Positions 21,171 through 58,204 of a stretch of 64,000 nt of DNA are shown one piece after another. This DNA comes from Escherichia coli (GTDB lineage Bacteria; Pseudomonadota; Gammaproteobacteria; Enterobacterales; Enterobacteriaceae), in assembly GCF_003019035.1 (NCBI RefSeq), contig NZ_CP027447.1. One strand, 5' to 3'. Position numbers and translations under genes: made by a program. The notes under the pieces were generated by a model, which was given only the letters and a program-made list of their open reading frames with translations, did not search any database and was not told the DNA's origin. The stretch's first letter is position 1. The number at the start of each line of letters is the position of its first letter.

Positions 21171-21434
21171 TCAGAGCTGGTTCACCCCATCAAGAACATC
21201 CCCCTTTATCAAGCAACGCTGCGTCAGCGCCAGATCTTCCGATTGCGGGTCGCGCCCGGCGATGGGTTTGAGGACGAGTTTACGGTTGGGGGTATAAGTA
21301 AAACGCGTGAGCGCGGGATAGCTTAACTTGCCAAACCAGCCGTGAACACGCTGCCATTTGGCGTCTTTTACCTGATACAGACTGGTTATCCAGTAACCGG
21401 AATCAAACTGCATATCCAGCAATTGCGTGTGGCC
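21171..21434 (-). pseudogene. C-terminal fragment of a host ORF split by the prophage
   Basis: Frame is continuous with the N-terminal fragment at 57696..58204 once the prophage and one copy of the direct repeat are removed. Confidence 0.7.
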
Positions 21435-21440
21435 ATTCCT
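21435..21440. repeat. Left target-site duplication (ATTCCT; 5 or 6 bp)
   Basis: Identical ATTCCT immediately flanks the other prophage end at 57695..57700. Confidence 0.7.
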
Positions 21441-21483
21441 TGATCAGACATGAGATAAATGAAGGGGGATCCGTGAGATAAAT
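21441..21483. repeat. Left prophage end with putative transposase-binding repeats
   Basis: TGAGATAAAT at 21451 and 21474; inverted copy at the right end (57652..57661). Confidence 0.6.
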
Positions 21484-21801
21484 AACGAATTGGAGTGGGT
21501 TAACATGGGTTCTGGTGAACAGAACTGAAATTCTTTTTCGTTATACGATAGATAAGTCGGACATTGAAATCATCCTTTCTGGCAACTTAGAATCGAGTTT
21601 GCTGAAACATGACTCGTAACAAAAAGGATGATTCCAATGACTACTCAAAACAATAAGCATGATAGCCTGGATTACTCAGAAAAGCCCAAAAGCAAGCACA
21701 TCGTGACGTTCGAGCGCGATTCCGGTAGAAAAGGAGAATCGTCTTCCTCTGCCAATAAAAACACTATACCGGCAGCTCCTGCTCCGGGGAAAAAATAAAC
21801 A

Positions 21802-22434
21802 TCATTCATCGTTCGTTGCACGAACGCGCCTGATCTCCACTCTGGCAATCTGATCTGCTGGAATATAGGTTGCCAGAGCTCCCCAGTACTTATCAACCAC
21901 GCCTTTATACTCTTCCCATTCGTTACTGCCTGAAGGGCTGCTGTGTGTGACGTAAAGAACCATATCGCCTTTATTCCCCAGGGTAAACGGACCGTTAGGC
22001 CACTCTTCAAAGTTCCCTGGCAGTCGTGACATCATACCGGAACCATCGCGAAGAATCACTCTGACCTCGGTGACGCTGAAGTCTGTTTGATCAAACATTG
22101 CCTGCCATGCTGAGCTGGTATCGTCAGACCATGAAATATCATTATTCCACAGTAATCTGTACATCCATTTGCGACCGTACCTGCGCCACCACGCACCACA
22201 TGTAACAGCACACAGAAGTGCTGGTGGTGTTGCCAGCCAGGCATTCAGACCTGCCCACATAACAGCCTGGTAAGCCATCATTGCTGTCAGGCCAAAAATT
22301 AGCGAAGAAAAAGTCACCTCAATGGGTTTGTGCTGATCCTTCAGCCCCACATTCGCAATAAAATACCCAATATAGCCACTGGTCAGAGTCACCAGTGTTG
22401 CCCATGGCAAATTTAACAACGAAACGTCAAACAT
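21802..22434 (-). CDS. Hypothetical membrane protein (three predicted TM helices plus ~130 aa soluble domain); terminal moron
   Basis: ORF with GGAG RBS before MFDVSLLNL; lies between the mor terminator and the prophage left end; lower GC than neighbouring phage genes. Confidence 0.55.
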   Translation of the reverse strand: MFDVSLLNLPWATLVTLTSGYIGYFIANVGLKDQHKPIEVTFSSLIFGLTAMMAYQAVMWAGLNAWLATPPALLCAVTCGAWWRRYGRKWMYRLLWNNDISWSDDTSSAWQAMFDQTDFSVTEVRVILRDGSGMMSRLPGNFEEWPNGPFTLGNKGDMVLYVTHSSPSGSNEWEEYKGVVDKYWGALATYIPADQIARVEIRRVRATNDE

Positions 22435-22472
22435 ATTTTCTCCCTGCATCCTGAATACTACAGAGAGAGCAT

Positions 22473-22504
22473 AAAAAAAGCACGGTAAGGGGTCTACCGT
22501 GCTT
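22473..22504 (-). terminator. Rho-independent terminator downstream of mor
   Basis: Stem agcacggta/taccgtgct followed by a U7 run on the minus-strand transcript. Confidence 0.7.
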
Positions 22505-22548
22505 TTATACAATAAGGAGATTTTTGAAAGGACTTTAACAAGCAGGAA

Positions 22549-22947
22549 TTATCTGGATTTGTTAACGTCTCTCGTCTCTTCTGGCAGATCTTCATCAAAC
22601 AACCTGCCCTGCATCCGATCCAGTTCTTCTTTTCTGACCCGCTTAACCACGCTGTAGACCCACTGAAGCGAAACACCAAACTTGCGGGCCAGTTCATGGT
22701 GGTTGCGTCCGTTAAACTCCCGGAAGATTTCCCGGTCGCGCTGACTGACCTTCCATACCATGCCCATCGGGAAATAAACGTTTTGCCCGCCCCAGACCTG
22801 CATCATGCGGTTCGCGACGGCCTGACCAATCTGGTCGGCAATTGCGGGCTCAATATCAATAATCTCGCGAACGGTCTCAGAGGTATGCTGTGCCAGTTCC
22901 ACCAGGAGTTCCGGCCCTTTACTTCGAAACTGATTCAGGTCGCTCAT
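22549..22947 (-). CDS. mor: Mor/C-family middle/late transcription activator
   Basis: IFREFNGRNHHELARKFGVSLQWVYSVVKRVRK closely resembles the conserved Mu Mor C-terminal HTH region. Confidence 0.75.
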   Translation of the reverse strand: MSDLNQFRSKGPELLVELAQHTSETVREIIDIEPAIADQIGQAVANRMMQVWGGQNVYFPMGMVWKVSQRDREIFREFNGRNHHELARKFGVSLQWVYSVVKRVRKEELDRMQGRLFDEDLPEETRDVNKSR

Positions 22948-54876: not shown

Positions 54877-55845
54877 ATGGCAAATCTACCCGAAACCCCG
54901 CAGTGGGAAAGCGGCATCTACCAGATTGAGGTCTCTGACCCCGTTCTGGGCGGACCTGACGGAATTTCTAACCGCCAGGCTAAACAACTGGCCAGCCGAA
55001 CGTCATACCTCAAACAGAAGGTCGAAAAAAGCGGAACAGACCTGGCTGCACATATCGCGGCAGTTGACCCGCATACCCAGTACGCGACGAAAGCCAGTCC
55101 GACATTCACCGGCACACCAACAGCACCTACACCTGCAAATGGTGATAACAGCAAAAAGCTGGCGACGACGGAGTTTGTGGCCAAAGCACTTGCGGCACTT
55201 GCAGGCAGCGCCCCTGAGACACTGGATACGCTTAAAGAGCTGGCTGACGCTCTCGGTAATGATCCAAACTTTGCGACTACGGTACTGAACAAGCTGGCGG
55301 AAAAGCTGGCTAAAGACCAGAACGGCGCAGATATTCCTGAGCCTGCGCTGTTTGTCAAAAACCTTGGTTTGGGGGAAGGCTCTGCACTGCCCGTTGGTGT
55401 GCCCGTTCCGTGGCCCTTAGCAACACCACCAACGGGCTGGCTGAAATGTAACGGTGCAGCATTTTCTTCTGAAATGTACCCCAAACTGGCAAAAGCCTAC
55501 CCCGCGAATAAATTACCGGATTTACGCGGAGAATTTATCCGTGGCTGGGATGATGGGCGAGGAATTGATGCGGCACGCGCTTTATTGAGCATTCAAAACG
55601 GGATGTTGGAAAAACACCGCCATATTGTTGTAGCTAACGATGGATATGACACAAAAGATGAATGGGAGTTGGCTACGATTTTCAAAAAAACATATACACA
55701 AGGCAGGGGGCTTGATGCCACAAATACAGGAGGGAGTTTGACTCCATCACCAACGCTTCATTCACGAGGAAGTATTGGTAACACAGGTGGTAGTGAAACC
55801 CGCCCCCGCAATATTGCATTTAACTATATCGTGAGGGCGGCTTAG
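54877..55845 (+). CDS. Tail fibre protein (constant N-terminus plus invertible C-terminal variant 1)
   Basis: 322 aa; tail-collar-like domain (GWLKCNGAAFSSEMYPKLAKAY...LPDLRGEFIRGWDDGRGID); C-terminal part lies inside the invertible segment. Confidence 0.8.
   Translation: MANLPETPQWESGIYQIEVSDPVLGGPDGISNRQAKQLASRTSYLKQKVEKSGTDLAAHIAAVDPHTQYATKASPTFTGTPTAPTPANGDNSKKLATTEFVAKALAALAGSAPETLDTLKELADALGNDPNFATTVLNKLAEKLAKDQNGADIPEPALFVKNLGLGEGSALPVGVPVPWPLATPPTGWLKCNGAAFSSEMYPKLAKAYPANKLPDLRGEFIRGWDDGRGIDAARALLSIQNGMLEKHRHIVVANDGYDTKDEWELATIFKKTYTQGRGLDATNTGGSLTPSPTLHSRGSIGNTGGSETRPRNIAFNYIVRAA
55352..55377. other. Left invertase crossover site (gix/hix-like)
   Basis: TTGTCAAAAACC-TT-GGTTTGGGGGAA; outer half-site matches the Hin/Gin half-site TTATCAAAAACC. 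Confidence 0.7.
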
Positions 55846-55851
55846 TTATAT

Positions 55852-56469
55852 TCAACTGGCTGCTGCCAGAGGCATTTCCGGCCAGTTGATATCCGGTGCA
55901 GTGCTGATGTCAGTCGCATTAAGCACATCTATGAAATCAAGCACGGCGTTTAGTTTTTCCGTCTCCTGGGGCGTCAATCGGCGTCCGGCTCGTAGTTTGA
56001 GATTTATAAGCTCAACAGATGCCATTGCCTGTTCCTCAAGTTGCTGACGATGCACTCCGGCAGCTTCCAGTTCTGCTGCGTGCTGTCGTCCCGCATCTGT
56101 CACCCAGGTCTCACCATCCCAGACATCATAGATAGTAGCTGGCTGTTTCACCGTCGTATCAGGAGGGTAATCTCCCGGTTGTGTGATTTGCACAGCGTTA
56201 CCATTCTCTGTGCTGTAAACCGTTTCGCCTCTGTGGTCTGGAACATATTTCCAGATGTTCTGGTCGGTATCACGACAGACAGCGAAGCCGGGGCGTTTTT
56301 CTGGTGGCGCGTCAATGCATGAGTGAGCCGGAATTCCAACACCATAAGCGAGATACTCAACAGTGGCAGAGAGATATTCACGGTTTTCAGCATCGTAGTT
56401 ATAAACGGTAATATCGCCTGCAGTTATAGCGATACCATTCTGATCAAGTACTGCAGCAGCATTATTCAT
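55852..56469 (-). CDS. Tail fibre assembly protein (Tfa)
   Basis: 205 aa; C-terminal TDISTAPDINWPEMP resembles the Tfa motif DTSTAPDIEWP. Confidence 0.8.
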   Translation of the reverse strand: MNNAAAVLDQNGIAITAGDITVYNYDAENREYLSATVEYLAYGVGIPAHSCIDAPPEKRPGFAVCRDTDQNIWKYVPDHRGETVYSTENGNAVQITQPGDYPPDTTVKQPATIYDVWDGETWVTDAGRQHAAELEAAGVHRQQLEEQAMASVELINLKLRAGRRLTPQETEKLNAVLDFIDVLNATDISTAPDINWPEMPLAAAS

Positions 56470-56966
56470 TAAGTAGCCCTTACAATATAGTTAAACGCAA
56501 TATTACGGGGGCGGTTTTCCGTTCCTGTATTCCCTCCGTTGGCACCTAATCTATAAACACCACGAGTGCCAATAGCACGTAGTGAAGATGGAACTTTTAC
56601 ACCTGACTCATCTGTTTTAACAATCCCGCCATCACCGTATGTAGCCAGTATACCAGGGTTTGTTCCTGCACGGGTGCTATTTGCGGCAAGCCCTTCACCA
56701 GTCCATAACTCCATATAGTGAATATGATCTATAACCGAATGTGATTGTGCATTAAGCAAGGAACGCCCTGAATCAATTCCCCGCCCGTCATCCCAGCCGC
56801 GAATAAACTCACCCCGTAAATCCGGTAATTTATTCGCGGGGTAGGCTTTTGCCAGTTTGGGGTACATTTCAGAAGAAAATGCTGCACCGTTACATTTCAG
56901 CCACCCTGCTGGCGGTGTGGCTGAGGGCCACGGAACGGGCACACCAACGGGCAGTGCAGAGCCTTC
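56469..56966 (-). CDS. Alternative tail-fibre C-terminal cassette (expressed after inversion)
   Basis: Encodes the same tail-collar region (GEGSALPVGVPVPWP...RGWDDGRGID) followed by a different C-terminus. Confidence 0.7.
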   Translation of the reverse strand, partial: EGSALPVGVPVPWPSATPPAGWLKCNGAAFSSEMYPKLAKAYPANKLPDLRGEFIRGWDDGRGIDSGRSLLNAQSHSVIDHIHYMELWTGEGLAANSTRAGTNPGILATYGDGGIVKTDESGVKVPSSLRAIGTRGVYRLGANGGNTGTENRPRNIAFNYIVRAT

Positions 56967-56978
56967 CCCCAAACCAAC
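56953..56978. other. Right invertase crossover site (gix/hix-like)
   Basis: TTCCCCCAAACC-AA-CGTTTTCGTCTT; inner half-site is the inverted copy of the left inner half-site. Confidence 0.7.
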
Positions 56979-57043
56979 GTTTTCGTCTTAACTCCCACCT
57001 ATACCAGCTATGTATTTTTAACAAAACAAAGAGGATATTTTTC

Positions 57044-57616
57044 ATGCAAATTGGCTACATTCGTGTGTCAACAAATGACCAGAATACAGATTTACAACGA
57101 AACGCACTGAACTGCGCAGGATGTGAACTGATTTTTGAGGATAAAATCAGCGGAACAAAGTCAGCCCGACCGGGATTGAAAAAGCTGCTCAGAACGTTAT
57201 CAGAAGGAGATACGCTCGTTGTCTGGAAGCTGGACAGGCTGGGCAGAAGCATGAAACACCTCATCACTCTTATTGAGGAACTGCGGGAAAAAGGGGTTAA
57301 CTTCCGTAGTCTTACAGACAGCATTGATACGTCAACACCCATGGGACGTTTCTTTTTTCACGTCATGGGGGCTTTAGCGGAAATGGAGCGTGAATTAATA
57401 GTTGAACGAACACTGGCCGGACTTGAAGCAGCACGTGCACAGGGGCGTATTGGTGGACGTCGTCCGAAACTGACAAAAGAGCAACATGAACAAATAGCAA
57501 GGCTGATCAAAAATGGCTATAGCAGGAAACAGTTGGCAATTATTTACGATATCGGTATATCGACGATTTATCGTTATCACCCTGTAGAGGAACTTCAAAC
57601 TCAAGCTGAGTTGTAA
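57044..57616 (+). CDS. gin: Serine DNA invertase (Gin/Hin/Pin family)
   Basis: MQIGYIRVSTNDQNTDLQRNAL... with catalytic Ser in the YIRVST motif and C-terminal HTH; AAGAGGA RBS. Confidence 0.9.
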   Translation: MQIGYIRVSTNDQNTDLQRNALNCAGCELIFEDKISGTKSARPGLKKLLRTLSEGDTLVVWKLDRLGRSMKHLITLIEELREKGVNFRSLTDSIDTSTPMGRFFFHVMGALAEMERELIVERTLAGLEAARAQGRIGGRRPKLTKEQHEQIARLIKNGYSRKQLAIIYDIGISTIYRYHPVEELQTQAEL

Positions 57617-57651
57617 TTCTTTTTCTGATATTGAAATGCCGCGGCGATGTA

Positions 57652-57694
57652 ATTTATCTCACGGAAATAGGTACGTTTATCGCGCGGCGCATCA
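57652..57694. repeat. Right prophage end with putative transposase-binding repeat
   Basis: ATTTATCTCA (inverse of TGAGATAAAT) 33 bp inside the terminus, symmetric with the left end; terminus ...GCGCATCA. Confidence 0.6.
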
Positions 57695-57700
57695 ATTCCT
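57695..57700. repeat. Right target-site duplication (ATTCCT; 5 or 6 bp)
   Basis: Identical to 21435..21440. Confidence 0.7.
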
Positions 57701-58204
57701 TTGTAAATCCAGCAAATCATCAATGCCAGTTTCACTTGCGGTATAAAAACTATCGGACTGAAAAACACACGGGCGACCTTGCTGATTAAAGGTCATCAGA
57801 ATCAAAAACGCGTTAGGTGCCAGACCATTTCCTGAAATACCCCGCCAGATAACCAGATCCTGAATGCCGTTACGATCAAGATCGGCACGGTAAAGTTGCG
57901 CATTACCCGCCATATTTTGCAGCACCCCCACAGGCACAGACCAGGATTTACCGGCGCGATCTTTACCGTTCAATTGCCATTCACTATCATCATTTGGCAT
58001 CTTTTCAAGCGTCACGCCAGCAACGCCGACTTTTCTAAAATGCCAGGTTTGCTCGGCATCATAAGGCATGGTCAGGAGAGGTTTCAGCGCCCGCTTTTGC
58101 GCGTATTCGCTGTCACTCATCGGCAGATATTCGGTAAAGCTGGTGGCCTGTGCAGGCAGCACTAAGCTCAATAAAAAAGCGCACATCCCTGTTCTGATGT
58201 TCAA
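57696..58204 (-). pseudogene. N-terminal fragment of the host ORF split by the prophage (signal-peptide protein)
   Basis: Signal-peptide-like N-terminus (MCAFLLSLVLPAQA); terminated by a TGA formed by the prophage's last 3 bp; in frame with 21171..21434. Confidence 0.7.

Follow-up and report, generated by a model that had tools for sequence, protein, structure and literature searches.

The DNA analysed is a 64,000-nucleotide stretch of Escherichia coli sequence (contig NZ_CP027447.1 of assembly GCF_003019035.1), referred to below as the window, in which a transposable prophage of the BcepMu type, 36,254 bp long and with TG...CA termini, occupies positions 21441-57694. We studied a plus-strand open reading frame (ORF) of 53 codons that starts 196 nt inside the left end of this prophage and closes with a stop codon at 21796-21798. 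A preliminary description, made from the letters of the window, had proposed the ORF as possible and had deemed two readings of it equal, one as a coding sequence and the other as non-coding end sequence holding transposase-binding sites. We recovered the frame and its translation exactly as quoted there, and the AAGGA motif that it had placed about 10 nt upstream is real, although the actual distance to the ATG is 8 nt. At its 3' end the ORF converges on a minus-strand gene for a 210-aa protein, its partner gene in the following; the two stop codons are 3 nt apart, without a terminator between them. The features of the locus are collected in Table 1.

Table 1. Features of the prophage ends and of the small-ORF locus, in order of position in the window
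Feature	Position	Strand	Remarks
Target-site duplication ATTCCT, 6 bp	21435-21440 (left copy); 57695-57700 (right copy)	.	In-silico excision
Left terminal repeat region	21441-21490	+	Starts 5'-TG; two direct copies of a putative transposase-binding motif
Terminator-like hairpin GGTTCTG-GTGAA-CAGAACT plus U-rich tract	21508-21539	+	Consensus scan; E. coli lineage only
Inverted repeat/hairpin	21562-21639	.	Arms 21562-21581 and 21620-21639, 20 nt, 90% complementary; 38-nt loop
Sigma-70-type promoter-like site TTGAAA-18 nt-TAGAAT	21564-21593	+	Consensus scan, 10/12 positions; inward-facing
Shine-Dalgarno motif AAGGA	21624-21628	+	8 nt before the ATG
53-codon ORF, small hydrophilic protein	21637-21798	+	PHROG 15726; hypothetical protein of the RefSeq WP_023892643.1 type
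Partner gene, 210-aa protein	21802-22434	-	PHROG 12870; three transmembrane helices predicted; small beta-barrel at the C-terminus
Strong terminator hairpin following Mor	22476-22506	-	A-run on one side, T-run on the other; divides the two-gene cassette from the early operon
Mor-family transcription activator	22549-22947	-	PF08765, E 1e-43; last gene of the leftward early operon
Right terminal repeat region	57650-57694	-	Both left-end motifs, inverted, with equal spacing; ends ...CA

As many as 82 ORFs of at least 30 aa were listed in 7 kb, so that a length of 53 codons is within chance and the case for a gene rests on comparison with relatives. The DNA around the ORF had been taken as otherwise unassigned, but both PGAP and PHROGs already list the ORF as a gene. 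PGAP places a hypothetical protein at the ORF in every close E. coli relative inspected, with an identical 53-aa annotation (WP_023892643.1, WP_001571575.1), and the product matched PHROG 15726 with an E value of 6.9e-40, residues 1-53 aligning with profile positions 1-53 of 53. A diverged 50-aa variant that is 35% identical matched the same family with an E value of 3.5e-5. Since PHROG 15726 has no assigned function, membership gives no mechanism. Sequence searches with the peptide against Pfam, PADLOC, NCBIfam and the PDB returned no matches, and literature searches on BcepMu in E. coli, DUF6338, the protein accessions and the Mu-like prophages of ST131 turned up nothing on this gene. Alternative frames at the locus were rejected. 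An in-frame ATG at 21628, which would give 56 aa, lies inside the AAGGA motif without a ribosome-binding site of its own, and PGAP picks 21637; a 112-aa antisense ORF (21672-22010) runs out of frame over the real 210-aa gene, and antisense frames are stopped in most variants.

The pattern of substitution points to translation of the sense frame. Among 53-codon alleles with up to about 15% DNA difference, the NG86 ratio of non-synonymous to synonymous substitution rates (dN/dS) was 0.05-0.56, mostly 0.1-0.3, and the variable columns were distributed over codon positions 1/2/3 as 8/9/21 (p = 0.016). A further class of alleles, the 50-aa CUVET21 type with 35% identity, has indels that preserve the frame, and two members of this class differ by 8 synonymous versus 7 non-synonymous codon changes, with a dN/dS of about 0.27. 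The sense frame was open in 19 of 19 variants, and each of the other five frames was stopped in 14-19 of the 19. Wherever upstream sequence is available, the variants have a purine-rich motif like AAGGA before the ATG, and the peptide motif described below is conserved while its synonymous sites vary. These comparisons indicate that the amino acid sequence is under purifying selection and that the ORF is very probably a translated gene.

To the same effect, a profile search of 1.84 billion representative proteins for relatives of the small ORF retrieved proteins of 46-56 aa, down to about 35% identity, that carry a conserved N-terminal motif, in its short form NNxxDSLDYSENPKG and in full M-T-T-(Q/K)-N-N-x-x-D-(S/T)-L-D-Y-(S/T)-E-N-P-K-(G/S)...V-x-F-E. 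The tail that follows is variable, rich in Ser, Asp and Pro, and often ends in KK. All of these relatives lie 190-260 nt from an interrupted host gene and converge on a gene of 211-215 aa, after which come Mor and GemA. When loci were fetched via the neighbour gene only, a convergent family ORF of 46-53 codons was present in 8 of the 10 that had enough flank, the two exceptions being a deletion (L056) and a different phage context (L062). Scanning metagenome contigs with nothing but the promoter pattern yielded 13 true left ends and 25 chance matches, with the ORF intact at 13/13 of the former and 0/25 of the latter; the 13 left ends are all of the E. coli type and therefore add no diversity. 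A scan of genome contigs for the promoter block yielded only 3 chance matches in unrelated phyla, because the species representatives do not carry this prophage. Conservation across related prophage ends, which the preliminary description had named as a check, was borne out in that the frame, the ribosome-binding site and the ATG are kept in diverged relatives.

We favour, with a probability of about 0.6, the explanation that the ORF is a genuine small-protein gene, the outermost one at the left end of a BcepMu-type prophage. Databases had it listed before as a hypothetical protein. Frame, selection and annotation support the coding reading, and the non-coding one, with the terminal motif lying outside the ORF, is rejected. 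Several observations weigh against this explanation. The peptide is of low complexity, and its isoelectric point ranges from 4.1 to 10.4 among variants. In a fused AlphaFold model (partner, linker and peptide) the peptide was disordered and undocked, with predicted local distance difference test values of 30-39, a result that is weak either way since the paired alignment was shallow (16 paired rows). The promoter is a consensus match only, and a consensus scan of the minus strand found no separate antisense promoter; candidate antisense -10 sequences in the first codons, judged by eye, vary among variants. The wobble positions of one antisense frame coincide with those of the sense frame, and it too has a low ratio of non-synonymous to synonymous polymorphism, so that dN/dS alone cannot fix the strand, which is instead fixed by the stop-codon pattern. 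In a widespread lineage of Salmonella enterica (167 index blocks) a 1-nt deletion in a CAAAAC run at codons 4-5 (L071:1501-1689) frameshifts the canonical ORF, the cassette being otherwise retained. The ORF was lost by deletion at one locus (L056), and a P2-like phage (L062) has a 60%-identical partner gene without the small ORF. The frameshift, the deletion and the partner-only phage together mean that the small ORF is dispensable and not an obligatory partner of the membrane protein. In the Salmonella lineage gene callers start instead at an ATG further upstream, within the 5' untranslated region (UTR), and give a product of 62 aa; the prophage itself sits between tail genes of a P2-like prophage.

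The predicted product is very hydrophilic, as had been claimed for it, with a grand average of hydropathy of -1.3 to -1.8 across variants, and has few or no cysteines. With low confidence, modelling suggests a disordered hydrophilic peptide whose conserved N-terminus might serve as a short binding motif. Because of the strict synteny with the neighbouring gene, the peptide is suggested to act on or with the membrane protein, and we infer, again with low confidence, that it works with or against this protein as part of an accessory cassette expressed from the prophage.

Upstream of the ORF, the predicted transcription start falls near 21600. The -35 element, TTG(A/T)A(A/C), and the -10 element, (C/T)TAGAATC, keep a constant spacing to the ATG in 15 variants, and the region 21529-21639 (110 nt 5' of the ATG, non-coding) is more conserved than the body of the ORF. 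A minority class (L049, L051) has another upstream region, in which an extended -10, TGGTAAAAT, was recognized by eye. The consensus match and its conservation support the small ORF having its own inward-facing sigma-70 promoter.

The promoter-like site is overlapped by an inverted repeat. Arm 1 spans the -35 hexamer and arm 2 spans the AAGGA motif and the ATG, while the loop carries the -10 element and the predicted 5' UTR. When only the arms of 11 distinct sequences were aligned, both sides had changed in 8 of the 20 pairs, as in the change from TTGAAA/TTTCAA to TTGTAA/TTACAA in one variant (L061) and from AAATC/GATGA to AAACC/GATGG in another (L025). The pairing register is specific, as 75-87% of cells were paired in register versus 30-57% in slid controls. 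On the minus strand 86.8% of cells were paired versus 75.5% on the plus strand, with 31 versus 6 G-U cells. Folded as RNA, both strands were significantly structured; the minus strand reached -36.3 kcal/mol (z -5.5) and the plus strand -27.1 kcal/mol (z -3.4), the minus-strand fold being the stabler in 12 of 12 variants by a mean of 11.9 kcal/mol. Since this asymmetry comes in part from base composition, assignment of the hairpin to the minus strand is favoured and not proven. A search of 21300-22700 against Rfam gave sub-threshold noise near the Mor terminator only and no match for the hairpin.

As a structure, the 20-bp inverted repeat is shown, compensatory substitutions included; that it works by fold-back or antisense pairing is what we infer. 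A plus-strand transcript reading through from host DNA would contain both arms and would fold, hiding the start site, whereas a transcript from the element's own promoter, starting at about 21600, would be free of arm 1 and could be translated. Fold-back inhibition is known from IS10, and host promoters often read into a phage that inserts at random. On the other strand, the hairpin would lie about 165 nt past the stop of the partner gene, in a 3' extension of the partner mRNA that would be antisense to the whole small ORF, where it could stabilize or define the 3' end of that mRNA or modulate antisense pairing.

The partner protein is 59-89% identical among relatives, far above the conservation of the peptide, and its relatives extend across Enterobacterales and, at about 40% identity, to soil bacteria. 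It had no match in Pfam, PADLOC or NCBIfam; for DUF6338 (PF19865) in particular, the window protein gave no match, and distant members of the partner family scored 23.9-25.9 bits against a cut-off of 26.5. Comparison of its structure with a viral fold library yielded weak matches to three-helix holins only. The putative cytoplasmic domain covers residues of about 100-210. The ORF had been described as adjoining a moron; within the phage lineage the neighbour gene proved to be a constant partner of the small ORF and not a sporadic one. The terminator that follows Mor looks bidirectional, in which case it would be the first stop for the small-ORF transcript after that transcript had run antisense through the 210-aa gene.

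Partner homologues also occur in other settings. The 60%-identical homologue of the apparent P2-type phage (L062:1501-2127) lies downstream of an Ogr-like zinc-finger gene and is followed by a clean hairpin terminator. A Bradyrhizobium sp. has a 45%-identical homologue in a non-Mu context (L067:4001-4798), abutted with a 0-nt gap by a convergent ORF of 57 aa, hydrophilic, rich in Pro and Lys and ending in PPPSPKKK, which is similar in position and composition. As a member of the small-ORF family this 57-aa ORF was rejected, with a score of 0.7 bits, near that of the reversed-sequence control (-2.7).

The placement of the ORF at the extreme left end of the prophage, as had been claimed, was confirmed by the exact ends of the element. 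All independent insertions compared have TGATCAGAC as the first bases of the element, at 21441 in the window, although the insertion sites in other E. coli genomes are unrelated (rhaS, sfaA, ssuB, xylR, an amino-acid permease and others). In-silico excision of 21441-57694 together with one copy of ATTCCT made a 265-codon host ORF intact again, and the ORF was rejoined only with a 6-bp duplication, assumptions of 5 or 7 bp failing. The restored host ORF and the fixed left start together define an element of 36,254 bp with a 6-bp target duplication. The window holds host chromosome on both flanks, with ascF/ascB-like genes upstream and hycI downstream. The split host gene (about 250 aa, minus strand, 21171-21422 and 57692-58204) sits between ascB and hycI; its N-terminus is signal-peptide-like, and it has no Pfam match.

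Within the element, the minus strand leftward from about 30.4 kb encodes a helix-turn-helix protein, a 589-aa rve-type DDE transposase, its AAA+ partner, Gam, DUF2786/GemA-type genes and Mor. Late genes occupy the plus strand from 30.7 kb, the last being an invertible tail-fibre segment and a resolvase-type invertase. The tail-fibre segment (55358-56983) is bounded by inverted repeats of 212 nt that are 93% complementary and offers alternative fibre C-termini on opposite strands; the adjoining invertase gene of the resolvase family (57047-57616) ends about 78 bp before the right terminus. A close E. coli relative of the prophage is classified in Bcepmuvirus, and the prophage type is present in 117 of 5,426 complete E. 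coli genomes (about 2%), including ST131-type strains such as SK1144; in strain IAL7250 the locus is 100% identical. With the cassette, it is also found in Salmonella, Klebsiella, Serratia and insect symbionts.

Each end of the element carries a GAGATAAAT-type motif twice with identical spacing, the repeated form being (C/G)(A/G)TGAGATAAAT. A motif search located the left-end copies at 21449-21462 (CATGAGATAAATGA) and 21472-21485 (CGTGAGATAAATAA); the inverted copies of the right end include 57650-57663. With up to three mismatches allowed, the search returned copies at 21449, 21472 and 57650 and two chance-level matches elsewhere, and none in 21637-21798. The terminal repeats are the best candidates for transposase-binding sites. 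Between them and the promoter lies a block (21529-21561) of the form AATTCTTTT(T/C)CG(T/C)TATACGATAGATAAG, nearly invariant among the E. coli variants and partly recognizable in distant relatives as TAATTnnTTTTCAGTATGTGAAAC, which may be a third transposase site or a site for a host factor. The terminator-like hairpin at 21508-21539 may stop host transcription from entering the element; as a conserved feature it was rejected, being missing in diverged relatives, unlike the motif TAATTnnTTTTC(A/C)G on its 3' side, which is kept in them. Solitary left-end remnants of about 145 bp, equivalent to 21450-21594, were seen in about 200 E. coli records at 88-89% identity. Many of the carriers are large plasmids of avian pathogenic E. 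coli, an example being plasmid pEND_Eco 18006 (L006:3001-3144). The remnants, which are unannotated, keep both terminal repeats and the TTGAAA...CAGAAT promoter-like block, without the ORF or phage genes after it.

Other explanations of the locus were weighed against a small-protein gene. The product could be an RNA and the ORF incidental: from the conserved promoter, transcription would cross the 210-aa gene in antisense up to the terminator at 22476-22506 and control that gene by transcriptional interference or through double-stranded RNA. The convergent genes with their 3-nt gap and no intervening terminator would suit such a role, as would the better conservation of 21529-21639 than of the ORF body, a conserved and covarying hairpin, the predicted disorder of the peptide and a Salmonella lineage that frameshifts the ORF and keeps the cassette. 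We nevertheless consider it unlikely in view of the purifying selection on the peptide, of in-frame indels, ATG and ribosome-binding site being kept down to about 35% identity, and of a peptide motif that is constant over variable synonymous sites; a dual role of RNA and peptide is conceivable. Improbable, too, is a cis-acting leader or arrest-type ORF, in which translation up to the Pro-rich C-terminus, or stalling there, would change how the overlapping transcripts pair in antisense or how stable they are. Conservation is N-terminal and not C-terminal, and the C-terminal sequence and charge vary so widely that some variants (L005, L055, L061) have no polyproline run, even though many others are Pro-rich before the stop (PAAPAPGKK, PPPLPSKKS, PPLPLKKK, PPPPKK, APPPRD), stop codons abut or overlap that of the partner gene, and the start region is embedded in RNA structure.

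If the partner were a toxic membrane protein, the peptide might be its antitoxin or immunity antidote in a toxin-antidote or abortive-infection pair, a suggestion that draws on the strict synteny of the pair in Mu-like prophages of Enterobacterales, on the three transmembrane helices and weak holin-like structural matches of the partner, and on the positionally analogous convergent small ORF beside the Bradyrhizobium homologue. We regard it as quite unlikely: that Bradyrhizobium ORF has no detectable homology, the partner gene stands without the small ORF in L062 and L056 and with a frameshifted ORF in the Salmonella lineage, neither protein matches PADLOC, Pfam or NCBIfam, and the fused AlphaFold model showed no interaction. 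The alternative of the preliminary description, namely that the ORF region is non-coding end sequence binding transposase or host factors in transposition, we hold to be very improbable. The region lies within 360 bp of the element end, and the attL of phage Mu spans about 180 bp, which was counted in favour of this alternative. However, the terminal motif is confined to 21449-21485 and the right end and never occurs in the ORF, at the right end the invertase gene comes to within about 78 bp of the terminus, synonymous sites in the ORF vary freely in a way that DNA bound by a protein would not, and both BcepMu and the solo-end remnants do without this segment.

A small-protein gene at this position settles the annotation question, the frame being a real gene and not end sequence, and defines a conserved two-gene cassette at the prophage end that comprises a small protein, predicted to be disordered, and a membrane protein. 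New in this work are the exact prophage ends with their target duplication, the positions assigned to the terminal repeats and the constant association of the ORF with a convergent gene for a membrane protein, together with the conserved promoter-like block and the covarying hairpin over promoter and start site. The hairpin is a concrete candidate for a regulatory element and shows how a randomly inserting phage could shield an end-proximal gene from host transcription. It is a speculative and rather unlikely extension that the ORF, the hairpin and the membrane protein, with its putative Sm-like cytoplasmic barrel, form one self-contained switch regulated by antisense RNA on transposable phages. 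If they did, the disordered peptide together with the RNA hairpin would act as the gate of a membrane effector, such as one for superinfection exclusion or for abortive infection, and the cassette would also be shielded from the host promoter behind which the phage lands. The practical importance is modest for now.

The arrangement can be compared with known systems. IS10 and IS200 have at their left ends an inverted repeat that masks the first inward gene's start site. Its outer arm overlaps the promoter of that gene, and from the complementary strand a stem-loop forms that is antisense to the start site (PMC4513863). IS200 has a terminator just outside, a hairpin that masks the ribosome-binding site and the antisense RNA art200, and the control region of IS10 produces RNA-IN and RNA-OUT (PMC4513863). 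In the same way, the inverted repeat at the prophage end lets the ATG and ribosome-binding site of the first inward-reading gene pair with a stretch further upstream, where the predicted promoter lies, and the complementary strand of the prophage hairpin is also predicted to form a stable stem-loop, in which the 5' arm runs antisense to the start site. The E. coli lineage of the prophage resembles IS200 also in the terminator-like hairpin that stands immediately upstream. Unlike in IS10 and IS200, the controlled gene would encode a 53-aa protein in place of a transposase, the large loop spans 32-39 nt, and no separate antisense promoter was found by the consensus scan, so that a minus-strand RNA would be a 3' extension of the convergent mRNA.

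With the Burkholderia phage BcepMu, the prophage shares homologous terminal repeats, TGA..GTGAGATATTT..GCGCGATATTT in BcepMu, whose left end starts TGAAGAGAGGTGAGATATTT...GCGCGATATTT, versus TGATCAGACATGAGATAAAT..GTGAGATAAAT in the prophage. It also shares a leftward early operon with GemA and Mor last, a DDE (rve) transposase, an AAA+ partner and Gam. The divergent arrangement of early and late genes, in which Mor closes the early operon beside the left end, is likewise that of BcepMu. In BcepMu, however, Mor is gene 1 and lies 364 bp from the end, and homologues of the small ORF and of the 210-aa gene are absent; judged by this comparison, the two-gene cassette is an addition in the Enterobacterales relatives of BcepMu. 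Like morons, the cassette stands outside the early operon past a strong terminator and comes with a sigma-70-like promoter of its own; the type phage of the genus lacks it. Unlike morons, it is a constant convergent module of two genes and not a sporadic single gene.

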